DNA from: Mycobacteriales bacterium
GTDB taxonomy: Bacteria > Actinomycetota > Actinomycetes > Mycobacteriales > QHCA01
Length of the DNA: 45,432 nucleotides
NCBI GenBank assembly: GCA_049698415.1
Contig: JBAVXU010000110.1
Span: 1 to 45,432 of the forward strand
Direction of reading: 5' to 3'
Positions 1,822 through 39,572 of the stretch are shown here, piece after piece (the first letter of the stretch is position 1; the number at the start of each line of letters is the position of its first letter). A program made the position numbers and the translations under genes. The notes under the pieces are model-generated. The model was not told the origin of the DNA. It did not search any database and saw nothing but the letters and a program-made list of their open reading frames with translations.

Positions 1822-3200
1822 GGGCGCATCCCGCCGGTCCACTGCACGCGGATCTGGTGCGTGCCTCGCCGGCCATGCCGGCCGAGGCCGATCTCAACGC
1901 GTTGCACCCGCAGCTGTGGCCACGATCGGCGGTCCGGGTCGACGGCGTGCTGATGCTGGGCGGTGTCGACGTACGCGACCTTGCCGCCAAGCACGGCACG
2001 CCGGCCTTCATCCTCGACGAGGACGACTTCAGGTCGCGCTGCCACGACTACCGCGCGGCGTTCGGTCAGGGAGCCGACGTCTACTACGCCGGCAAGGCGT
2101 TCCTGTGCGCCGAGGTGGCCCGCTGGGTGCGCGACGAGGGCTTGCGGCTCGACGTGTGTTCCGGCGGAGAGCTCGCGCTGGCGCTGCGGGCCGGCTTTCC
2201 GCCGGAGCGGATCGCCTTCCACGGCAACAACAAGACGTCGGCCGAGCTCAGCGCCGCCCTCGATGCCGACGTGGGCCGGATCGTCGTCGACTCCTACGAA
2301 GAGATCACCCGGCTGGCCGACATCGCCGTGCGCACCGGGCAGCGCCCCAAGGTGCAGATCCGGGCCACCGTCGGGGTGGAGGCGCACACCCACGAGTACA
2401 TCGCCACGGCCCACGAGGACCAGAAGTTCGGCTTCTCGATGACGGCCGGTGCCGTGCTCGAGGCGGTGCGCCGGATCCGGATGCTGCCGCTGCTCGACCT
2501 GCTGGGCCTGCACAGCCATATCGGCTCCCAGATCTTCGACACCGCCGGCTTCGAGGTGTCGGCGCACCGGGTCGTCGAGTTGCTTGCCGCGGTTCGCGAC
2601 GAGCACGGGATCGAGTTGCCCGAGATCGGCCTCGGCGGCGGCCTGGGGATTGCCTACACAGCGCAGGACGACCCGCTCGATCCGCGTCAGGTGGCCGATT
2701 CGCTGCGCGAGATCGTCGCGCGGGAGTGCGCTGCGGTCGGCCTCGCGGTGCCTCGGCTCTCCGTCGAGCCCGGGCGGGCGATCGCCGGACCCGGCACGGT
2801 CACGTTGTACGAAGTCGGCACGGTCAAGAACGTCGACGGGATCCGCACCTACATCAGCGTCGGCGGCGGGATGAGCGACAACATCCGCACCGCGCTGTAC
2901 GACGCGGAGTACACCTGCGCCCTGGTCTCGCGGGCCAGCCCAGCCCGGCCGATGCTGACCCGGATCGTCGGCTCGCACTGCGAGTCCGGAGACGTGGTCG
3001 TACGAGACGCCTGGCTGCCGTCAGACATCGTGCCGGGCGACCTCATCGCCGTCGCGGCGACCGGTGCCTACTGCCGGTCGATGGCCAGCAACTACAACGT
3101 CGTGGGCCGTCCGCCGGTCGTCGCGGTCCGTGGCGGGGTGTCGCGTGAGGTGGTCCGGCGGGAGACCATCGACGACCTGCTCCGGCTGGATGTCGGATGA
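1818..3200 (+). CDS. lysA: diaminopimelate decarboxylase
   Basis: 460-aa ORF with PLP-lysine context YYAGKAF plus [18 protein letters not shown] and CESGD motifs. GTG start overlaps the argS stop (GTGA-type overlap). Confidence 0.95.
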
Positions 3201-4498
3201 GATCCGAACCATTGCGGATCGCTCTGCTGGGCTGCGGCACCGTCGGATCGCAGGTGGTGCGCCTGCTCCAGGAGCACTCCGCCGACCTCGCCAGCCGGGT
3301 GGGCGCCCCGCTTGAGATAGCCGGCATCGCCGTCCGCCGCCCGGACCGGGAGCGCAACCTGGCTCTGGACCCGGGGCTGATCACCACGGACGCGGCCGGG
3401 CTGGTGTCGCGTGAGGACATCGACGTCGTCGTCGAGGTGATCGGTGGCATCGAGCCGGCCCGGTCGCTGCTGCTGGCGGCCTTCAAGTCCGGCAAGTCGG
3501 TGGTGACCGCCAACAAGGCACTGCTCGCCGCAGATGGTGCGACCCTTCATGCCGCCGCCCGCGAACACCATGCCGATCTGTACTTCGAGGCGTCGGTGGC
3601 CGGCGCCATCCCGCTGCTGCGCCCGTTGCTGGAGTCGATGGCCGGCGACCGACTGGTCCGGGTGCTGGGCATCGTCAACGGCACGACCAACTACATCCTG
3701 TCCAAGATGGACGAGACCGGCGCCGGATTCGCCGAGGCGCTCGACGAGGCCACCTCACTGGGCTACGCCGAGGCCGACCCGACGGCCGACGTCGAGGGGT
3801 TCGACGCCGCCGCCAAGGCGGCCATCCTGGCCAGCCTCGCCTTCCACTCCCAGGTCACCGTCGCCGACGTTCACCGCGAGGGCATCACCGAGGTGACCTC
3901 GACCGACGTGGCCAGTGCACGAGCGGTCGGGTGCGTCGTGAAGTTGCTGGCGATCTGCGAAAAGACCGGGCAGGACGAGGGAATCGGCGTTCGCGTGCAT
4001 CCGGCGATGATCCCGCGCACGCATCCGTTGGCGGCGGTCGGCGGCGCCTTCAACGCCGTCTTCGTCGAGGGGGAGGCATCCGGGCCGCTGATGTTCTACG
4101 GCCAGGGCGCCGGTGGCGCACCCACCGCCAGTGCGGTGCTCGGCGACCTGGTCGCCGTCTGCCGCAATCGCATCAGTGGCGCACGTGGCGTGGGCGAGTC
4201 CTCCTATGCCGATCTGCCCGTCCGGCCGATGGGTGAGGCGCAGACCCGCTATCACGTCAGCCTCGAAGTCGCCGACGAGGCCGGCGTTCTGGCCGCGGTC
4301 GCGCTCGCCTTCGCCGCCCATGACGTCTCGATCGAGACCGTCCGCCAGGAGGGCCGCGGCGCGGCGGCGTCGCTGGTGCTGGTCACCCACGTCGCCTCCG
4401 ATGCTGCGCTGTCGGCGACGGTCGAGGACCTGCGGGAGCTCCCGGCCGTACGCGGCGTCGCCAGCGTCATGCGGGTGGAGGGGATGGACGCTCGATGA
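3197..4498 (+). CDS. hom: homoserine dehydrogenase
   Basis: 433-aa ORF with N-terminal NAD-binding [18 protein letters not shown], and a C-terminal ACT-like domain. ATGA overlap with lysA. Confidence 0.95.
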
Positions 4499-30989: not shown

Positions 30990-31052
30990 GCGTATTACCC
31001 GCCGGTAGGCTCTGAGCCGTCGTCGTTGACGGGCGGCCCGAAGGAGGCTCCG

Positions 31053-33053
31053 GTGCCCTACCCATCTGCTCCCGGTGATCACGACCCGCCGTGGGTGATG
31101 CGCACCTACGCCGGTCACTCCTCCGCCCGGGAGTCCAACGAGTTGTTCCGGCGCAACATCGCCAAGGGCCAGACCGGCCTGTCGGTGGCCTTCGACCTGC
31201 CCACTCAGACGGGCTACGACCCGGACCACGAACTCGCCCGCGGTGAGGTGGGCAAGGTCGGAGTGCCGATCGCCCACGTCGGTGACCTGCGCGCGCTCTT
31301 CGACGAGATCCCGCTGGCCGAGACCAACACCTCGATGACGATCAACGCGACGGCGATGTGGCTGCTCGCGCTATATCAGGTGGTGGCGCAGGAGCAGGGT
31401 GCCGACGTCGCGGCGCTGACCGGCACCACCCAGAACGACATCATCAAGGAGTACCTCTCCCGGGGAACCTACGTCTTCCCGCCCGCGGCCTCGCTGCGCC
31501 TGGTCACCGACATGGTCGTGCACACGGTGACGCGGATACCGAAATGGAGCCCGATCAACATCTGCTCGTACCACCTGCAGGAGGCCGGCGCCACGCCGGT
31601 TCAGGAGGTGGCGTTCTCGCTGTGCAACGCGATGGCCGTGCTCGACTCGGTGCGCGACAGCGGCCAGATCGGCCCCGACGCGATGGGCGGGGTCGTCGCC
31701 CGCATCTCGTTCTTCGTCAACGCCGGGGTGCGTTTCGTCGAAGAGATGTGCAAGATGCGCGCCTTCGTCGAGTTGTGGGACGAGATCACCCAGCAGCGCT
31801 ACGGCGTCACCGACCCGCGGCAGCGCCGGTTCCGCTACGGCGTGCAGGTCAACTCCCTGGGGCTGACCGCCGCCCAGCCCGAGAACAACATCCAGCGCAT
31901 CGTGCTCGAGATGCTCGCGGTCACCCTCTCCCGCGACGCCCGGGCGCGGGCGGTGCAGCTGCCGGCATGGAACGAAGCGCTCGGGCTGCCCCGGCCCTGG
32001 GACCAGCAGTGGTCGTTGCGGCTGCAGCAGGTGCTCGCCTACGAAAGCGACCTGTTGGAATACGACGACCTGTTCACGGGATCGCCGGTCGTCGAGGCCA
32101 AGGTCGCCTCCATCGTCGAGGGCTCCCGGGCCGAGATCGACCGGGTGCAGGCGCTCGGTGGCGCGGTGCCGGCCGTCGAGAGCGGCTACATGAAGACCGA
32201 GTTGGTGCGCTCGCTCGCCGAGCGGCACCGCCGGATCGAGTCCGGCGAGGATGTCGTGATCGGCGTCAACAAGTTCACGACCTCCGAGCCCAACCCGCTG
32301 CTGGCCGACCTCGATGCCGCGATCCAGACCGTCGACCCGGCCGGTGAGCAGGCGGCGATCGACGCACTCGAGCGCTGGCGCGCAGAGCGCGACGCCACCG
32401 AGGTCGATGCCGCGCTCGGGGCGTTGCGCGATGCGGCCAAGACCGAGGGCAACCTGATGGAGGTGACGCTTCGGTGCGCTCGCGCCGGCGTCACGACGGG
32501 GGAGTGGGCGGGAGTCCTCCGCGACGTCTTCGGTGAGTACCGCGCCCCGACCGGAGTGTCCGGCACCGCCGTCGTCGGCGGTGACCCCGGTGAGCAGATC
32601 GCGGCCGTACGCCGGCGGGTCGCCGCGACCGGGCGTGACCTGGGCGTACGACTGAAGATGCTGGTGGGCAAGCCGGGCCTCGACGGGCATTCCAACGGTG
32701 CCGAGCAGGTCGCCGTCCGGGCCCGTGACGTCGGCTTCGAGGTGGTCTATCAGGGGATCCGGCTGACCCCGGCGGAGATCGTGGCCGCCGCGGTTCAGGA
32801 GGACGTGCACGTGGTGGGGCTCTCGGTGCTGTCCGGGTCGCACCTGGGCGTCGTCCCGGACGTGATCGACGGCCTACGCGCCGCCGGGATGGCTGACGTG
32901 CCGGTGATCGTCGGCGGCATCATCCCCGACCGCGATGCCGAGGTGCTGCGCGGACTCGGCGTGGCCCGGGTGTTCACCCCCAAGGACTACGAACTGACCG
33001 AGATCATGGACGACATCGTCGGTGTGATCCGCCAGGTGCACGGCCTCGATTGA
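31053..33053 (+). CDS. fused B12-dependent acyl-CoA mutase (methylmalonyl-CoA mutase family; MeaA/ethylmalonyl-CoA-mutase-like by motif)
   Basis: RTYAGHSS, GLSVAFDLPTQTGYD and TGTTQNDIIKEYLSRGTY motifs. C-terminal cobalamin-binding DxHxxG (LDGHSNG). GTG at 31053, 5 nt after AAGGAGG (the ORF is open from 31026). Confidence 0.92.
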   Translation: MPYPSAPGDHDPPWVMRTYAGHSSARESNELFRRNIAKGQTGLSVAFDLPTQTGYDPDHELARGEVGKVGVPIAHVGDLRALFDEIPLAETNTSMTINATAMWLLALYQVVAQEQGADVAALTGTTQNDIIKEYLSRGTYVFPPAASLRLVTDMVVHTVTRIPKWSPINICSYHLQEAGATPVQEVAFSLCNAMAVLDSVRDSGQIGPDAMGGVVARISFFVNAGVRFVEEMCKMRAFVELWDEITQQRYGVTDPRQRRFRYGVQVNSLGLTAAQPENNIQRIVLEMLAVTLSRDARARAVQLPAWNEALGLPRPWDQQWSLRLQQVLAYESDLLEYDDLFTGSPVVEAKVASIVEGSRAEIDRVQALGGAVPAVESGYMKTELVRSLAERHRRIESGEDVVIGVNKFTTSEPNPLLADLDAAIQTVDPAGEQAAIDALERWRAERDATEVDAALGALRDAAKTEGNLMEVTLRCARAGVTTGEWAGVLRDVFGEYRAPTGVSGTAVVGGDPGEQIAAVRRRVAATGRDLGVRLKMLVGKPGLDGHSNGAEQVAVRARDVGFEVVYQGIRLTPAEIVAAAVQEDVHVVGLSVLSGSHLGVVPDVIDGLRAAGMADVPVIVGGIIPDRDAEVLRGLGVARVFTPKDYELTEIMDDIVGVIRQVHGLD

Positions 33054-33080
33054 CCCAGCCGTGGTGGGCAGCCCGGCGGG

Positions 33081-33287
33081 TCAGCCGCCGCGCGAGTTGG
33101 TCAGCCGGAGCGCCATCGTCGGGCAGGCGGCGACGCTCGCCCGCGCGGCCGGCACGAGATCGGGGGGAAGTTCGGCGCCGTCGACGATGGGGAACCCCCA
33201 CTCGTCCGGCGATATCCGCTCGGGCAGCAACTCGCTGCACAGCCCCCGCCCGTCGCAGGCCACCCAGTTGACGCTGACGCTGCTCAT
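33081..33287 (-). CDS. small ferredoxin (3-Cys, 3Fe-4S-type pattern)
   Basis: 68 aa with ACDGRGLC...AACP (C-x2-R-x2-C...CP). ATGA overlap with the upstream gene. The computed ORF from 33560 is a 5' extension. Confidence 0.75.
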   Translation of the reverse strand: MSSVSVNWVACDGRGLCSELLPERISPDEWGFPIVDGAELPPDLVPAARASVAACPTMALRLTNSRGG

Positions 33288-34585
33288 CGCGGCGTCCTCT
33301 CGCTCGGCACCGGCAGGATGGCCCTGCGATCGGTCGCCGTGCAGCGCCCGTCGAGGTGCTGCCGGACTTCGGCCGCGAACACCTGCATGGCGCTGCGTAC
33401 GAACCGTGTGGTGCCGTCCGGGTGATGGCAGCTCCCACGTCCCTGGACGACCGACATCAGTTGGGCGATGCGGGGTGGGCCACCGCCGGTGGACCTGCCG
33501 GCCGCGAGCGACCGCAGTTCGGCCGCGAGCATCGGCAGTCCGTTGAGGCAGGGGCCGCACTGACCAGCGACCTCACCGGCGAGGTAGGTCGCCGCGCGCG
33601 AGGTCTCGACCACTCCGCAGGCCGCCGCCGGCAGAGCCACCAGCACGCCGGCACCTGGCCTGGACTGCACCGCTTGCAGCCCGGCCACCGACAGCGGCAG
33701 GTCGGGAGCGCCTTCGGCACCGATCCACGAGCCGTGGTAACCGCCCACGAGCAGCGCCCGGACCGGGTCGGAGACCCCACCGGCCAGCGCGAGTGCGTCG
33801 ATCAGCCTGGTGCCGAGGGGGACCTCGACCACGCCGGGGTTGCGGACCGCACCGCTGACGGTGAGCAGCATCGTGCCCGGCTCGTCCGGGGTTCCCAGGG
33901 CGCGGAACCACGCGGCGCCATGCCGTGCGATCAGGGCCAGGTGCGCCAGCGTCTCGACGTTATGCACCAGTGTCGGACGTCCTCGTACCCCCTTCTGGAA
34001 CACCGGCGGGGGAGTGTGCCGCGGCTTCGCGGCGCCGCCGCTCAGCCGGGCGACGACCGCGCTCTCCTGACCGGAGATGAACCGCGCGGGTGCCTCGACG
34101 ACCGCGACGCTGATCGCATCCAGACCGGCCGGCGCGCGGGTGTCGACCAGCCCGCGCATCATCGGCACCAGCGGGCCTTCGTGCACGTAGATGAAGGCGT
34201 CACGTGCGCCGACGGCGCGCGCAGCCAGTTGCAGGCCGTCGAGGACGAGGTGCGGGGCGAGGCTCAGCAGCAGCCGGTCCTTGCCACTGGCCGGCTCGCC
34301 CTCGGCGCCGTTGGCGACCACCACCGGGTTCCGGCCGGCCGCGACCGCCGAGAGCTTGCGGTGCACCGGGAAGCCGGCGCCCCCTCTGCCCGTGAGCCCG
34401 GACTCCGCAATCTCGAAGAGCAACTCGCGAGCCGTCAGGTCGTACGGCAGGGGTCCATGCGTCTGCTGGTGCGTCGCGATGTCGCGCAGCCGTCCGTCGG
34501 CACCGGATGCGGGCAGGACACGATCCCAACCGAGAGGGCCGGCCCAGGTCGCGGGCGCGGTCCCGGGCTGTGCGAGCGTGCTCAT
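33284..34585 (-). CDS. NuoF-like (Complex I 51-kDa family) flavo-iron-sulfur protein
   Basis: GLTGRGGAGFP, ANGAEGEPASGKDR and VHNVETL motifs, plus a C-terminal Cys cluster GQCGPC...GSCHH. ATG at 34585, 6 nt after GGAGG; ATGA overlap with the upstream gene. Confidence 0.85.
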   Translation of the reverse strand: MSTLAQPGTAPATWAGPLGWDRVLPASGADGRLRDIATHQQTHGPLPYDLTARELLFEIAESGLTGRGGAGFPVHRKLSAVAAGRNPVVVANGAEGEPASGKDRLLLSLAPHLVLDGLQLAARAVGARDAFIYVHEGPLVPMMRGLVDTRAPAGLDAISVAVVEAPARFISGQESAVVARLSGGAAKPRHTPPPVFQKGVRGRPTLVHNVETLAHLALIARHGAAWFRALGTPDEPGTMLLTVSGAVRNPGVVEVPLGTRLIDALALAGGVSDPVRALLVGGYHGSWIGAEGAPDLPLSVAGLQAVQSRPGAGVLVALPAAACGVVETSRAATYLAGEVAGQCGPCLNGLPMLAAELRSLAAGRSTGGGPPRIAQLMSVVQGRGSCHHPDGTTRFVRSAMQVFAAEVRQHLDGRCTATDRRAILPVPSERTPR

Positions 34586-35169
34586 CTGGTGCCTCCGGAT
34601 CGGGCCGCGACGAGGCGGCGATTCGACGTACGTTCCTTCGAGCCCGTGATGGTTGCCACCCGCCAGGCTGCGGCGACCACGGTCACTCCTACGCACGCGA
34701 GGGCCAGCCACAACAAGCCACCGTGCCGGATATCGGGTCCCAGCGCGATGCTGTGTGCGACCGCGATCGGCCACGCGGCGTACACCGACAGGTGCACGAC
34801 CTTCCATGCCCGCCGGCCGAGGAACCCGCGCAGCAGGCTGGTGATCACGACGGCGACGAACAGGTCGAGCGACACAGCGCCGAGGCCGATGCTCAGCGGG
34901 TGATAGCTGGCCGTGAAGGGCACCACCGCGTCGACGATCCGCAGCGGCACGTACGGATCAGCGATTGCCGTGCCGACGTGGGTGCCGAGCAGCGCCACCG
35001 ACAGCAGTGCCGCGTTGCGGTGCAGGGCGGTGACCGCGAAGCGCGGCAGGCCGGGAAGCGGCCGCCCACCTCTGGTCAGGATGCCGAGCACCACGACCAG
35101 CGTGAAGGTCACCAGGAGGACCACTCCGGTGCCCCGGCTGAGGTACCACAACGGGCTCCCGGCGCTCAC
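34582..35169 (-). CDS. ferric-reductase-domain (MsrQ/NOX-like) bis-haem membrane protein
   Basis: 195 aa and polytopic. H-x13-H (LHRNAALLSVALLGTH) and H-x12-H (VHLSVYAAWPIAVAH) pairs. GTGA overlap with the apbE stop. Confidence 0.75.
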   Translation of the reverse strand: MSAGSPLWYLSRGTGVVLLVTFTLVVVLGILTRGGRPLPGLPRFAVTALHRNAALLSVALLGTHVGTAIADPYVPLRIVDAVVPFTASYHPLSIGLGAVSLDLFVAVVITSLLRGFLGRRAWKVVHLSVYAAWPIAVAHSIALGPDIRHGGLLWLALACVGVTVVAAAWRVATITGSKERTSNRRLVAARSGGTR

Positions 35170-36101
35170 GCCGACTCCGGGGGCCAGCCGTTGATCGTGA
35201 TCACATCGCCCTGCTGGTCGACCAGACGAGCCGGTAGGCGGCGGTCGGCCAGTTCCTTGAGCCCGCGTCGTCCGCTCACGATGGCCGATGTGCTGGCGGT
35301 GTTGGCCGCCAGGCAGGTCCCTGCGGCGACGGTGATGGTTCGCCAGGGTGAGACGGCGGGCATCCCTGTGTGTGGGTCGAGGAGGTGATGGAGTTCGACC
35401 CCTCCGCGGCGCCAGCGTCGGGCCTTCATGCTCGAGGTGGCCAGACCACCGGATTGCACGCTCACCGTGCTCACCCGCCCGACCGCATCCGTTGGCCGCT
35501 CCTGGACGCGCACCGCCCACCCGCCCTCCGGCGGCCCACCGGCAGTCGCGATGTCGCCGCCGAGGCTGACCAGCACCCCACAGCCGAGCTCGGTGGCGAT
35601 CTGGTCAGCGAGCCGGTCGGCACACCACGCCTTGGCGGTGGCGCCGAGGTCGAGTCCGACCCCAGCTGGCAACAGGACGGTGTCCATGGTCCGGTCCAGC
35701 TGAACCCGCGACCAGTGCGACACCCGGTGCGCGGTGAACGCGACCGGAGCGGCGTCGTCGGGGAGCCGGTCGAAGTCCTGGTCGTAGCCGAGCCGGGTCA
35801 TCGATCCGCCCAGGGTCGGATCCACCATTCCGCCGGTCTGCCGGGCAGCGGTGAGCGCGACGGCGATGGCCGCGGACAGCAGCGGACTGACGGCGACCCG
35901 TCGACCGGCCGACCTGTTCACTGCGGACAGCTCGGAGTCGGCCCGGAACCTGCTGCATGCCAGATCGAGTGCGGCCAGTTCGGTCTGGAGGATGTCACTG
36001 GCCCGCGGCAGGCATGCGGCGTCGGTGACGACCAACCTCACCCGGACGCCGAGCGCACGGCGGTCGACCGCCGCTAGCCGCTCCCGAGTTGCAGTCGTCA
36101 T
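35166..36101 (-). CDS. apbE: FAD:protein FMN transferase (ApbE family), no signal peptide
   Basis: LDLGATAKAWCADR, VLVSLGGDIA and GGLATSS motifs. The N-terminus runs straight into the catalytic domain. Confidence 0.87.
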   Translation of the reverse strand: MTTATRERLAAVDRRALGVRVRLVVTDAACLPRASDILQTELAALDLACSRFRADSELSAVNRSAGRRVAVSPLLSAAIAVALTAARQTGGMVDPTLGGSMTRLGYDQDFDRLPDDAAPVAFTAHRVSHWSRVQLDRTMDTVLLPAGVGLDLGATAKAWCADRLADQIATELGCGVLVSLGGDIATAGGPPEGGWAVRVQERPTDAVGRVSTVSVQSGGLATSSMKARRWRRGGVELHHLLDPHTGMPAVSPWRTITVAAGTCLAANTASTSAIVSGRRGLKELADRRLPARLVDQQGDVITINGWPPESA

Positions 36102-36367
36102 GACGCGCTCGTAGTGGCGTCCGGAGCCGACGAGGTCGAGCTCGGCGCCTGTACGGTGCCGCCGTTGGTCGAGGACTGGTTGCCGCTCGACGTCGTCGAC
36201 GTCGAGGTGGAGCCGCTGGTCGCGGTCGATGCCGCCGCGTGCTGAGTGGCGTACGCGAAGGCGCCTGCGCCGACGCTGCTGGCCACGGCGATCCCGACGG
36301 TCAGGGCGGTGATCCGGCGCCGTCCGCGCTCGGCGGCACCCCGGCGGGCTGCGTTGGAGTCGTTCAT
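36098..36367 (-). CDS. small Ser/Thr-rich exported or membrane-anchored protein (possible Tat-type signal)
   Basis: 89 aa: [40 protein letters not shown], then an S/T-rich tail. GGAGGA RBS before the ATG at 36367. ATGA overlap with apbE. The computed ORF from 36631 is a 5' extension. Confidence 0.5.
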
Positions 36368-36422
36368 CGTTCCTCCTGGTCGACGCTCGTCAGGCCTTGA
36401 GAACCGACTACACATCGGCAAC

Positions 36423-36458
36423 CTGGGAAGTCCCTGGGTATCTGCTGAGAGCTGGGTA
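36423..36458. promoter_or_regulatory. three direct CTGGG(A/T)A repeats in a divergent promoter region
   Basis: CTGGGAA at 36423-36429, CTGGGTA at 36434-36440 and at 36452-36458, inside the 151-bp gap between the redox operon and the AhpD-like gene. Confidence 0.3.
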
Positions 36459-36518
36459 GGGATCGTCGGCTCATACGCGATCGTCCGGCCGCACATGAGC
36501 GCCGGGTACCGTGCCCGC

Positions 36519-37097
36519 ATGTCACACGATGAGGTGGGCAGCTGGTTTCCGGTGCCGGCCGAAACGGACCTGCCCGAGGATCTGCAGAAGCTCTTCGCCA
36601 AGGCGCGAGAGAACATCGGCTTCGTCCCCAACGTCTTCCGTACCTACTCCTTCCGGCCGGAGCGGCTGCGCACGTGGTTCGCGCATTTCAAGGCCCTGCA
36701 CGTCCCGACCGAGCATCTCGACGCGGCCGACCGCGAGATGATCGCCGTCGTCGTGTCGATGGCCAACGGCTGCCTGTACTGCCTGGTGGCCCATGGCGCC
36801 GCGCTGCGGGAGTTTCTCGGCGATCCGGTGCTCGGCGACCGGATTACCCTCGACTGGCGGCGGGCCGGCCTCGACCGGCGGCGGGCAGCGATCTGCGGCT
36901 ATGCCGAGAAGCTGACGCTGACCCCGCGGGCGCTGACCGAGGGAGATCTCGATGCGCTGCGTGAGGTGGGGCTCAGCGACGAAGAGGTCTGGGACGTCGC
37001 CGAGGTGGCCGCGATGTACAACCTGACCAACCGGATGGCAATGGCAACGAACATGCTCCCGAACGAGGAGTACCACCGGCTGGCCCGAACCTCCTGA
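36519..37097 (+). CDS. peroxidase-related (AhpD/carboxymuconolactone decarboxylase family) CxxC protein
   Basis: [13 protein letters not shown].. and CxxC in [15 protein letters not shown] at 36519 (alternative at 36495); the ORF is open from 36246. Confidence 0.87.
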
Positions 37098-37166
37098 CCC
37101 GGCACGCCCAGCGGGCTACCGGCACGAACCCGGGTCGATCGACGACCTCGGAGCCAGTTCTCGGAG

Positions 37167-39572
37167 ATGGCTGGGACGGCAGGTACGGGCCTAAAGTGCC
37201 AAAGTATGCGGGAGCCCGTCGTTTCGCCGCGCGAACATGAGGTGCTCAGCGCGTTGGCTGACCGGCTCACCAACGCCGAGATCGCCGACCGCCTGTTCAT
37301 CTCGGTACGAACGGTCGAGAACCATGTGTCCGCGTTGCTGCGCAAGCTCGACGCCAAGAACCGTCGCGCACTTGCAGAGATTGCCCGCCAGCCGCGAGGC
37401 GCGGTCGACACCGAGATCCGCCGCCTCCCAGCAACCCGTGGCCGCCTCGTAGGTCGTGAGGAGGAGCTGGCGAAGGTTGCGGCGGCGCTTGAGACCTCGC
37501 GCTGGGTGACGATCGTGGGTCCCGCAGGGGTCGGAAAGACAAGGCTCGCGCTCGAGGCCGCTGGTTGCTTCGCCGACGATGCCAGCGTGGTGTTCGTCGA
37601 TCTGACGGCGACCCGCGACGACTCCACAGCGTTGTCCGCCCTGTTGGGCGCGGCTCTGGTCGGTGACGAGCCGCGGTCATCTTGGCAGGCGGCTTTCAGC
37701 AGGCGGTTCGGTACGCGGTCGACGCTGGTCGTGATCGACAACTGTGAGCACGTGGTCGAGGTCGCTGCTGACCTCGCTGTTGGACTGATGGACGTCGGGC
37801 CAACGTTGCGGGTGCTGGCAACCAGCCGTGAGCCTTTTGCGGTAGCAGCGGAGCGCGTGGTGCTGCTCACACCCCTGCCGATACCGAACGAGGGGGCGAC
37901 CACCGACAGCCTTTACTCGAACCCGTCGGTGGAACTGTTCATCGACCGTGCGGCCGCACTGGGTCAGGACGTCGTCGTCGACGAGACAACCGGTCCGTAC
38001 CTCGGCTCCATCTGTCGACGGCTCGACGGGATCCCGTTGGCCCTCGAGTTGGCCGCGGCGCAGCTCCCCGCCCTGTCACCCAAGCAGATAGATGATCGGC
38101 TCAGCGACCGATTCGCCCTGCTGCGCGGACCGTTCGGAGCTCGTTCCCCTCGGCATGCCACGCTGGAAACGGCCCTTGCCTGGAGCTACGACCTCCTCGA
38201 TGTTCACGAGCGTGCATTGATGGACCGGCTAGCCGTGTTCCGCGGGACCTTCGCACTGGAAGCCGTCGAGGAAGTCGCTACCGGGCCGCCGATAGCCGCT
38301 GCCGATGTTGTCGTTCTTCTCGTCCGGCTGGTCCGCAAGTCGCTGGTTGTTGCCGAGCAGGTCGGGGCCGACAAGAGGTATCGGTTGCTGGAGACGATGC
38401 GTGAGTTCGGCTGGCAACGGCTCACCGACGCCGGGGAGCTGTCCCAGTGGCGGGAGCGTCACAGGCAATGGATCTTTGGCCTCATGCGGGCAGCATCGGA
38501 GGGGCTTTCCTGCGGTGTCGTCCCGACCTGGCTGGACTACCTGGACGTCGAGCTCGACAACATCGAGGTTGCGCTCGGCTGGAGCATGAGCTCACCGGAG
38601 CGCGCGGCCGAGGCCATGCCGGTCATCCGCGGGCTGGAGCGCTACTGGATGGCGCGCGGTGTCCGCCGCGCGCACGGCGTTCGCTGGTCCACCGCTGCTG
38701 CTGAACGGGCGACCGGGCTGCCTGTCGTGGCCCGAGTCGAGGCACTCCTCGGCGCCACACTTCTCGTCATGTGGAGCGACCTCAGTGCCGCGCGAGCTCT
38801 CACTGACATGGCGAAGCGGCTGGCGGGACCGGCAGGTGACCCGGTCGCCATGGGCTACGCAGCGCTCGCAGATGCGTGGGTGCACTTGTTCGCCGGACCG
38901 ACCGAGGACGTCGCACGGCTCGCGGCAACAGCTGGCGACCTGATCCAGGAAGATGATCCGGTTCATCCGTGGGCGGCTGTCGCCACGGCGACGCTGCACG
39001 GCTACGACGGTGACCACGCGCGTGCGGGGTCGCAGATCGCCGAAATCGGGAAAGCCTTCCTCGGCAATGACGACCGTCACCTGTACGGCGCCTGGCTGAG
39101 CTGGAGCGCCGACTTCCTGGTCGCGGGAGGCGAGCTTGCATCGGCACGGATGCAGCTCGACGCGTCGCTGCGTGAGGCGCAGGTCGCAGACTGCGCGTCC
39201 TGTGAGTCCCAGGCGCTGGCGTCTCTCGCATTGCTCGAAGATGATGCGGCAAACCGGCTCCGAACCGGCAGGTCGGCGCTGCGCCTCGCCCGCGACATCG
39301 GTGAACCATGGGGTGTCTTCTGTGCGCTTGAGGTAGTGGTCGGCGCCCTCGCTGCGGGGGGGTGGCCGGAGGATGCCGCACTGCTTGCGGGGGCGACCCG
39401 AGCGGCCAGGGCGCAGAGCGGACTTGTGTCGATCTTGCCGGGTCGCGCGGCCGCCCTGACCGACGGCGAGGCGCGGGCCCTTGCGGAGCTGGGCACTTCT
39501 GCCTTCGACGAGCTTGCCCGCGACGGTGCGCGGCTCGATCTGCCGTCTGCGGTCGTACACGCACTCGGCTGA
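37167..39572 (+). CDS. STAND-type regulator: N-terminal LuxR HTH + NB-ARC-like ATPase + helical-repeat C-terminus
   Basis: HTH LSPREHEVLSALADRLTNAEIADRLFISVRTVENHV. Walker A GPAGVGKTRLA, Walker B LVVIDNCEH, GxP-like DGIPLALELAA. Long Ala/Leu-rich repeat region. Alternative start at the ATG at 37206. Confidence 0.85.
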   Translation: MAGTAGTGLKCQSMREPVVSPREHEVLSALADRLTNAEIADRLFISVRTVENHVSALLRKLDAKNRRALAEIARQPRGAVDTEIRRLPATRGRLVGREEELAKVAAALETSRWVTIVGPAGVGKTRLALEAAGCFADDASVVFVDLTATRDDSTALSALLGAALVGDEPRSSWQAAFSRRFGTRSTLVVIDNCEHVVEVAADLAVGLMDVGPTLRVLATSREPFAVAAERVVLLTPLPIPNEGATTDSLYSNPSVELFIDRAAALGQDVVVDETTGPYLGSICRRLDGIPLALELAAAQLPALSPKQIDDRLSDRFALLRGPFGARSPRHATLETALAWSYDLLDVHERALMDRLAVFRGTFALEAVEEVATGPPIAAADVVVLLVRLVRKSLVVAEQVGADKRYRLLETMREFGWQRLTDAGELSQWRERHRQWIFGLMRAASEGLSCGVVPTWLDYLDVELDNIEVALGWSMSSPERAAEAMPVIRGLERYWMARGVRRAHGVRWSTAAAERATGLPVVARVEALLGATLLVMWSDLSAARALTDMAKRLAGPAGDPVAMGYAALADAWVHLFAGPTEDVARLAATAGDLIQEDDPVHPWAAVATATLHGYDGDHARAGSQIAEIGKAFLGNDDRHLYGAWLSWSADFLVAGGELASARMQLDASLREAQVADCASCESQALASLALLEDDAANRLRTGRSALRLARDIGEPWGVFCALEVVVGALAAGGWPEDAALLAGATRAARAQSGLVSILPGRAAALTDGEARALAELGTSAFDELARDGARLDLPSAVVHALG

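Follow-up and report, generated by a model that had tools for sequence, protein, structure and literature searches.

A candidate C-terminal flavin tag on a small, predicted membrane-anchored protein of a conserved actinobacterial redox operon

Covalent flavinylation by ApbE is a hallmark of extracytosolic electron transfer and concerns about half of bacteria. To our knowledge, every accepted ApbE substrate holds its flavin within a folded domain. Here, we describe a five-gene operon whose product may belong to another kind of substrate. The operon lies at positions 33081-36367 of contig JBAVXU010000110.1 of a Mycobacteriales bacterium (assembly GCA_049698415.1); the whole contig of 45,432 nucleotides (nt) was analysed and is called the window below. 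The genes code, in order, for a S/T-rich mini-protein, a leaderless ApbE, a bis-haem ferric-reductase-domain protein, a NuoF-like protein and a 3-Cys ferredoxin. From sequence comparisons, the mini-protein (ORF1) is most likely the flavinylation acceptor of the operon.

The closest described systems are the MsrQ-like flavinylation clusters catalogued, on a purely bioinformatic basis, by Meheust et al. 2021; 31 of these clusters have a NuoF-like protein with PF10589 (PMC8238504). In this work, ApbE and FMN_bind genes without signal peptides were removed by the pipeline, and some ApbE substrates were stated to be unidentified (PMC8238504). Only 31 NuoF-like clusters were counted because leaderless ApbE genes were discarded in this way. 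As for the modification itself, ApbE recognises the motif D-x-x-[S/T]-G-A-[S/T] and transfers flavin mononucleotide (FMN) onto its last residue. Seven residues suffice and a protein terminus is their best placement; changing D to A has a minor effect, and the G-to-A and A-to-V changes lower flavinylation, not to zero (PMC12052999). Finally, in FMN_red proteins, flavinylation was shown on an unstructured C-terminal extension (PMC11334425).

The operon under study is composed of the following elements, given with their lengths in amino acids (aa).

33081-36367, minus strand: chain of five genes with start/stop overlaps of 4 nt
36098..36367, minus strand: mini-protein gene, 89 aa, proposed flavinylation acceptor; open reading frame (ORF) with a GGAGGA Shine-Dalgarno sequence, no Pfam family
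36248..36328, minus strand: predicted signal-anchor region of the mini-protein, residues 14-40, with a basic N-terminal side and a hydrophobic core
36101..36121, minus strand: C-terminal DATTSAS followed by the stop codon, proposed natural flavin tag from its match to the ApbE motif, with FMN on Ser89
35166..36101, minus strand: ApbE-family FAD:protein FMN transferase (FAD, flavin adenine dinucleotide), 311 aa, PF02424, no signal peptide or lipobox
34582..35169, minus strand: ferric-reductase-domain (MsrQ/NOX/STEAP-like) bis-haem b protein, 195 aa, PF01794, five predicted transmembrane (TM) helices
33284..34585, minus strand: NuoF-like NAD(P)H-oxidising flavoprotein, 433 aa, PF01512, PF10531 and PF10589, with a modified Fe-S site
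33081..33287, minus strand: small 3-Cys single-cluster ferredoxin, 68 aa, PF13459 Fer4_15 (E 2e-10)

The four overlaps are read directly in the sequence (ATGA at 36098-36101, GTGA at 35166-35169, ATGA at 34582-34585 and at 33284-33287), and the GGAGGA Shine-Dalgarno sequence is located 3 nt 5' of the mini-protein ATG at 36367. The five ORFs and four overlaps listed in a first-pass annotation of this DNA are thus all present, and so are the His, NuoF-like and ferredoxin motifs that it quoted. Its view that the five genes form one unit is borne out as well, the arrangement being widely conserved in the best 80 loci of NuoF-like relatives, which make up our comparison set and were obtained from a scan using one genome per species. 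Pfam families are assigned to four of the five proteins, the mini-protein having none. A hidden Markov model search of the five ORFs agrees with the earlier statement that no FMN_bind domain is encoded. Indeed, FMN_bind (PF04205), DUF2271, DUF3570 and NqrB-RnfD domains are all absent from the five proteins (Pfam, E up to 0.1). Moreover, the canonical D..[ST]GA[ST] motif is found in no ORF of at least 50 aa across the 45-kb window, and an alternative acceptor is found neither inside this window nor inside the 12-kb relative loci. It had been concluded at first pass that the operon has no recognisable flavinylation acceptor. This conclusion most likely does not hold, because the mini-protein ends in DATTSAS and the conserved end of its relatives fits the ApbE motif.

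Relatives of the mini-protein, identified by position and architecture, are present in at least 67 of the 80 loci. Where none was detected, the locus is in most cases truncated or N-masked upstream, or its mini-protein was missed by the composition filter, as in L075. The sequence logo of 70 relatives gives the end consensus [D/Q/H]-[A/S]-T-[S/T]-[G/S]-[G/A]-S-COOH. Numbering from the C-terminus, position -7 is D, Q or H, position -6 is A or S, position -5 is T in 57 relatives and position -4 is S or T in all 70. Position -3 is G in 53 relatives and S in 12, position -2 is G in 41 and A in 27, and position -1 is an invariant S (70/70) directly followed by the stop codon. In Streptomyces the tag reads DSTSGAS and agrees with D-x-x-[S/T]-G-A-[S/T] at every position. 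Many other relatives have ATSGGS, and the nearest ones have ATSSGS or ATTSGS. In the DATTSAS of the window, D, [S/T], A and the terminal S agree with the motif, and S replaces G. Ends of the type [ST][GSAN][GA]S are found in 74 of the 5619 ORFs (at least 60 aa) of the loci, and nearly all of these ORFs are mini-proteins. Weighing this position-by-position agreement together with the adverse points discussed below, we lean slightly towards the mini-protein being flavinylated.

In 56 of the 59 loci where apbE is adjacent, the end of the small ORF coincides with the start of apbE. The last codons of the ORF are purine-rich, with GGAG or GGGG in many loci. Such features would be expected if the mini-protein ORF were the frameshifted signal-anchor of a secreted ApbE, or if its conserved end were nothing else than the Shine-Dalgarno sequence of apbE. 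However, in these same 56 loci, which represent many families, the mini-protein is a separate ORF with its own stop codon. The tag codons vary synonymously across loci (GGA/GGC/GGG/GGT; GCG/GCC/GCA; TCG/TCA/TCC), which argues for selection at the protein level. The tag is also retained in ten loci without adjacent apbE (L002, L003, L017, L024, L026, L030, L034, L036, L057, L075), including four in which the next start is about 80-160 nt away (L017, L026, L030, L034). In L067 (4584-5381), the order is apbE, mini-protein gene, membrane-protein gene instead of the usual mini-protein gene, apbE, membrane-protein gene. Finally, conserved positions are also found outside any Shine-Dalgarno sequence, namely -5 to -7 and a L/V located about 22 residues before the end. 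Synonymous codons, tags without apbE, distant next starts and the order in L067 thus exclude a split ApbE leader as well as a Shine-Dalgarno shadow; such an origin of the mini-protein ORF is refuted by the comparative data and we consider it extremely improbable. In addition, a mini-protein gene was called independently in L081, L083 and L085, with a product of 91-112 aa.

The mini-protein is made up of a basic N-terminus, one Ala/Gly-rich hydrophobic helix, a S/T-rich linker and the conserved C-terminal tag. Outside this layout the sequences diverge, with a mean column identity of 23%. The N-terminus contains RR in 50 of the 70 relatives and a basic pair of the RxR or RK type in another 12, and small-xxx-small spacing is observed in the hydrophobic core of 53. 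In the same 70 relatives, the linker is hypervariable, counts 34-94 residues and contains 54% Ser+Thr. The N-terminus bears 4-7 Arg; the tail is nearly free of basic residues and is either nearly charge-free or acidic. Following the positive-inside rule, the mini-protein is predicted to insert with its N-terminus inside and its C-terminus outside. In many mini-proteins, a lone L/V followed by Q/S-[AS]-[PSG] is found 18-29 residues before the C-terminus (residues 72-77, VQAPSS, at 36137-36154 in the window), and the conserved C-terminal module may therefore be about 23 residues long and possibly be a docking segment.

No Pfam domain, FMN_bind included, is detected in 31 mini-protein relatives (E up to 0.01). 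An assignment as TatB was rejected, the NCBIfam TatB_1 score of 17.8 bits (cut-off 100) being a low-complexity/TM artefact. None of the 80 loci has an FMN_bind protein in the mini-protein slot, as would be seen if a known acceptor had displaced it. The mini-protein with start 36367 is absent from a collection of 15 billion proteins in which the ApbE, the membrane protein and the ferredoxin of the same metagenome-assembled contig are present; it was probably either left unannotated or called from another start. Some loci have two mini-protein genes, as seen in L032 (313-2124, 2845-3519) and L063 (864-2036, about 2954-3322). In two others, a PMT_2/YkcB_C glycosyltransferase gene is directly upstream of the mini-protein gene (L083:849-3053, L084:942-3053). 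This neighbour could be linked to O-glycosylation of the S/T linker or could be a coincidence.

The other genes of the operon are conserved together. Relatives of the NuoF-like protein number in the thousands in databases, and at least 565 of the 600 pattern matches listed were confirmed as such. The membrane-protein, NuoF-like and ferredoxin genes are adjacent in this order in essentially all of the 80 loci with enough flanking sequence. The ferredoxin gene is directly 3' of the NuoF-like gene in 80/80 loci and apbE is directly upstream of the membrane-protein gene in 59/80. The census of co-occurrence that had been proposed at first pass for the NuoF-like, ferredoxin, ferric-reductase-domain and ApbE quartet thus gives three genes nearly always together and apbE upstream in 59 loci. 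This co-occurrence far exceeds chance. The cluster is observed in Streptomyces, Actinoplanes, Frankia, Nocardia, Amycolatopsis, Nocardiopsis, Catenulispora and Trebonia, as well as in Blastococcus, Nanopelagicales, Acidothermaceae, Dermatophilaceae and Gaiellales. In closer relatives from metagenomes (59-65% identity), the five genes are called as here and show identical 4-nt overlaps.

The ApbE of the operon matches PF02424 with an E-value of 4.3e-49 (residues 18-288 aligned with profile positions 2-258 of 266), and its relatives in the PDB are 1vrm, 4xdt and 6nxi (E 1e-20 to 1e-11). Its ORF is already the longest possible one and its N-terminus is not hydrophobic. Since the domain begins at residue 18 of this maximal ORF, there is no in-frame leader, and the earlier description of the protein as leaderless is confirmed. 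The orthologues also have short, non-hydrophobic N-termini. The motifs D94-P-T-L-G, D151-L-G-A-T-A-K157 and H238-H239-L-L-D-P are kept, at 95% or more in 58 orthologues. In contrast, the A-D-A-L-[SA]-T motif of the T. maritima and T. pallidum proteins is replaced by A-N267-T-A-S-T (Asn codon at 35301-35303), and Asn is found at this position in 57 of the 58 orthologues. In T. pallidum Ftp, the Asp of A-D-A-L-S-T is a Mg2+ ligand. The residues reported to be critical for transferase activity are those that bind Mg2+ (PMC4767422). Asn267 possibly corresponds to a changed metal site specific to the leaderless ApbE clade.

Ftp/ApbE enzymes fall into two classes, the FAD-binding transferases and the FAD pyrophosphatases (PMC4767422). 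Together with the Asn found in nearly all orthologues and the missing leader, this would be compatible with a cytoplasmic, Ftp-like protein that binds or hydrolyses FAD and supplies FMN to the NuoF-like subunit or inserts it there, no covalent flavin being formed. However, all other motifs for FAD binding and catalysis are conserved, the His pair of HHxxDP among them, and an Asn would still be able to ligate Mg2+. Moreover, the ApbE-type motif at the end of the coupled upstream gene is then left unexplained. We therefore give little credence to this possibility. A cytoplasmic location is in itself no obstacle to a transferase, cytosolic ApbEs being known (PMC12052999).

The membrane protein is recognised as Ferric_reduct (PF01794) with 28.3 bits, barely over the cut-off of 28. 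It contains the pairs H50-x13-H64 and H126-x12-H139, whose four His are invariant in 31 homologues. The AlphaFold2 model (pLDDT 81) has helices at residues 6-32, 43-70, 91-112, 119-143 and 151-191, the two His pairs being on helices 2 (43-70) and 4 (119-143). A PDB search with the sequence gave no meaningful match. With the model, the top Foldseek match is the TM domain of SpNOX (8qta/8qq7; prob 1.0, TMq 0.54, root-mean-square deviation 4.0 over about 161 columns), and STEAP2, STEAP1 and NOX5 rank next. With values of 0.015 to 2, the E-values are weak, but the family signal is consistent. From both sequence and model, the protein is predicted to be a bis-haem b transmembrane carrier. It has five helices, whereas NOX-type and MsrQ-like proteins have six. 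One hypothesis is that the N-in/C-out helix of the mini-protein replaces the missing first helix of the cytochrome, thereby supplying the sixth.

This raises an alternative view, in which the mini-protein would be a structural or assembly subunit, for example this sixth helix, with a C-terminus used for docking or processing, and in which ApbE would act on an FMN_bind, DUF2271 or similar protein encoded elsewhere. Besides the helix count of NOX, STEAP and MsrQ-like proteins (PMC8238504), the richness of the mini-protein helix in small-xxx-small packing motifs, the occurrence of about ten loci with a mini-protein gene and no adjacent apbE, the departure of the window tag from the canonical motif and the predicted location of the tail on the side opposite to the leaderless ApbE are all in line with it. 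Yet it does not account for a C-terminus that follows the ApbE motif position by position up to an invariant terminal Ser, for the 4-nt overlap of the mini-protein gene and apbE in most loci or for the lack of another acceptor in the 45-kb window and the 12-kb loci. Moreover, a structural role and flavinylation can coexist. A purely structural role thus appears unlikely to us, and flavinylation of the mini-protein is kept as the preferred reading.

The NuoF-like protein contains Complex1_51K (PF01512, E 2.5e-32), SLBB and NADH_4Fe-4S domains, with the motifs GLTGRGGAGFP, ANGAEGEPASGKDR, VHNVETL and GQCGPC, and is related to T. thermophilus Nqo1 with an E-value of 6.5e-49. At the N3 site, C343, C346 and C386 are kept and the first Cys is replaced by Ala340 (residues 340-346 at 33548-33568). 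C323, C415, H388 and H410 are additionally invariant in 24 homologues. Hence, the Fe-S site may have another fourth ligand or hold a different cluster. Compared with the NCBIfam NuoF equivalog TIGR01959, the protein reaches 215.8 bits for a cut-off of 558.65, and neither nuoE nor nuoG is found within the operon. The ferredoxin has the pattern C11-x2-R-x2-C17...C55-P, that is, three Cys. These data support the earlier proposal of a cytoplasmic NAD(P)H-oxidising module coupled to a bis-haem membrane protein and an ApbE.

Taken together, the sequences lead us to infer a self-contained outward electron conduit, for which carrier order, direction of flow, topology, flavinylation of Ser89 and modification before export are all proposals of the present analysis. 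In this model, the cytoplasmic NuoF-like protein would oxidise NAD(P)H on a non-covalent FMN and, by way of its modified Fe-S site, hand the electrons over to the 3-Cys ferredoxin. They would then cross the membrane via the inner and then the outer b haem of the five-helix protein and arrive at a single FMN linked by a phosphoester to the terminal Ser89 of the mini-protein. Finally, an outside acceptor would take them up, the candidates being Fe(III), O2, a quinone or a wall-bound enzyme. The mini-protein would have no flavin-binding fold and would consist of a membrane anchor, a flexible S/T leash and a seven-residue ApbE tag. If extended, the linker would span about 12-33 nm, and about 24 nm at the median of 66 residues, a length obtained by arithmetic and not measured, which is comparable to the Gram-positive wall. 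The tethered flavin would thereby pass electrons into the cell wall or beyond.

The leaderless ApbE, translationally coupled to the mini-protein, would attach FMN in the cytoplasm before the tail is exported. This order of events is suggested by the cytoplasmic ApbE, the presence of FAD in the cytoplasm and the predicted C-out tail. It also fits with a tag placed at the very end of the protein, which would stay in the cytoplasm longest. Export of the tail could follow the Sec, Tat or YidC route. The topological conflict between an outside tail and a cytoplasmic ApbE would disappear if the mini-protein were C-in or not inserted at all. The flavinylated tail would then be a tethered cytoplasmic carrier between the NuoF-like/ferredoxin module and the inner haem, the outer haem reducing the external acceptor. 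The fold match points in the same direction, NOX and STEAP enzymes needing no extracytosolic flavin. On the other hand, the Arg-rich N-terminus and the tail nearly devoid of basic residues strongly predict N-in/C-out by the positive-inside rule. Moreover, a cytoplasmic carrier is already available in the ferredoxin, and related MsrQ-like systems place their flavinylated partner outside (PMC8238504). A cytoplasmic tail thus seems improbable to us, and the outward model with a C-out tail is retained in what follows.

Several points nevertheless weigh against this outward model and against flavinylation of the mini-protein. First, the tag is predicted to be outside and ApbE inside, so that a pre-flavinylated tail would have to be exported, which is not known from any system. 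The residues that follow the RR of the mini-protein (RRRITAL in the window) also fit poorly with the Tat consensus [ST]-R-R-x-F-L-K. Second, the tag of the window has a Ser at the position of the canonical Gly, and many relatives have Gly for the canonical Ala and Q or H for the canonical Asp. Third, the use by ApbE of a residue with a free alpha-carboxylate is not described in the open-access texts searched, and the published F1 tag has three residues beyond its Thr. Finally, the ApbE clade has Asn for the Asp of the A-D-A-L-S-T motif, and apbE is not adjacent in about ten loci. All in all, the full model, with an exported pre-flavinylated leash that would define an unrecognised class of domain-less ApbE substrates and a new route of flavoprotein biogenesis in Actinomycetota, is proposed tentatively, as possible rather than probable.

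On the genomic level, the operon of the window is surrounded by the following genes.

31026-33053, plus strand: fused methylmalonyl-CoA-mutase/B12-binding protein, convergent, the ferredoxin stop being 27 nt away
36516-37097, plus strand: CMD/AhpD-like protein, divergent flank
37167-39572, plus strand: LuxR-family STAND regulator, flanking gene

None of these flanking genes is kept beside the operon elsewhere. The sole recurrent neighbour, next to the operon in about 28 of the 80 loci, is a two-component system with an OmpR-type regulator and a histidine kinase with a HAMP domain (for example L020:2995-3759, L024:8314-9855 and L081:1-1640), of no identifiable subtype; in the window, Pfam detects no two-component gene flanking the operon. 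In Streptomyces, the operon occupies a fixed housekeeping context, with proS on one side and the rimP-nusA region on the other (L069:1986-3692, L051:10234-11232). Such a fixed place suggests that the operon has a core function in the genus, one that is old and vertically inherited. The proS/nusA neighbourhood was considered as a functional clue and dropped, such a housekeeping context being uninformative. At the RNA level, no FMN riboswitch is found in an Rfam scan of 32800-37300, and a Guanidine-III RNA hit in the same region was discarded as sub-threshold (19 bits vs. 36). Scans for consensus promoters and terminators detected nothing.

If the mini-protein is indeed flavinylated, nature would make use of the minimal Flavin-tag that engineers derived artificially, and part of the orphan ApbE genes, for which the 2021 census had no explanation, would be accounted for. 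The terminal carrier would also be defined for a predicted NAD(P)H-driven outward conduit that hundreds of Actinomycetota possess, Streptomyces, Frankia and Nocardia among them. Such a conduit may serve iron reduction, redox repair or extracellular electron transfer. The question would then be raised of how a tail flavinylated in the cytoplasm gets exported.

The idea of a minimal tag has an engineered counterpart, the Flavin-tag reported by Tong et al. 2021. With this tag, a short unstructured terminal peptide is sufficient for ApbE, with no flavin-binding fold (PMC12052999; PMC9400968), as would be the case here. However, the Flavin-tag was made from NqrC in the laboratory, whereas the equivalent tag described here is apparently natural and carried by a membrane-anchored leash. 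The natural tag is also looser (G/S at -3, G/A at -2, D/Q/H at -7), and FMN would sit on the last residue of the protein. The FMN_red proteins of Firmicutes likewise carry the motif on a disordered C-terminal tail, outside an FMN_bind fold (Huang et al. 2024, PMC11334425). Their tail folds onto the flavin site of a globular reductase, whereas the mini-protein has no globular domain. Its isoalloxazine ring would thus be either hosted by a partner protein or exposed to the solvent.

A further comparison concerns the location of ApbE. The ApbE of the Klebsiella pneumoniae fumarate reductase also lacks an export signal and is cytoplasmic (cited in PMC12052999). Its substrate is a soluble cytoplasmic FMN_bind enzyme, whereas the presumed substrate here has an export/anchor signal. 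The pairing of a leaderless ApbE with an exported substrate is not described in the open-access literature searched.

The electron-transfer proteins have their own relatives. Like NOX, STEAP and MsrQ proteins (SpNOX 8qq7/8qta, NOX5, STEAP1/2), the membrane protein has a bis-haem core with H-x13-H and H-x12-H on two helices and would be fed by cytoplasmic NAD(P)H. However, the NOX-type enzymes have a fused FNR-type FAD/NADPH domain, in place of which a separate NuoF-like flavo-Fe-S protein and a ferredoxin are found here, and the six helices of the NOX, STEAP and MsrQ proteins are replaced by five, together with ApbE and a tagged peptide. The NuoF-like protein shares with NuoF/Nqo1 and with the HydB/HoxF relatives the NADH/FMN Rossmann-like domain, the SLBB domain and the C-terminal Fe-S four-helix domain. 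It differs from NuoF/Nqo1 by the lack of NuoE, the Ala in place of the first N3 Cys and the extra invariant Cys and His.

Finally, the system as a whole is closest to the NuoF-like subtype of the MsrQ-like clusters, with which it shares a PF01794 cytochrome, apbE and a PF10589 NuoF-like protein presumed to be the NAD(P)H-oxidising donor (PMC8238504). The operational definition used for these clusters, a PF01794 gene in a flavinylation-associated cluster, applies to the window, where the PF01794 and PF02424 genes are adjacent and overlapping. MsrQ-like clusters are also predominantly from Actinobacteria, and electron transfer to the outside was proposed for them as it is here (PMC8238504). However, this class typically has an FMN-binding-domain protein and components with signal peptides, whereas the present operon has a leaderless ApbE and no FMN_bind domain. 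Furthermore, Meheust et al. 2021 devote one sentence to the NuoF-like subtype, in which ferredoxin, mini-protein and acceptor do not appear. An acceptor made up of a TM helix, a linker and a C-terminal tag is not described in the open-access literature searched, including PMC8238504, PMC11334425 and PMC12052999. The first-pass annotation could not map this gene set to a characterised system. This stands in part, as no experimental characterisation was found in open-access text, but the class itself has been catalogued (PMC8238504). Thus, the operon belongs to a known, experimentally uncharacterised class, within which the mini-protein, as the most likely acceptor, would be a new variant of ApbE substrate.

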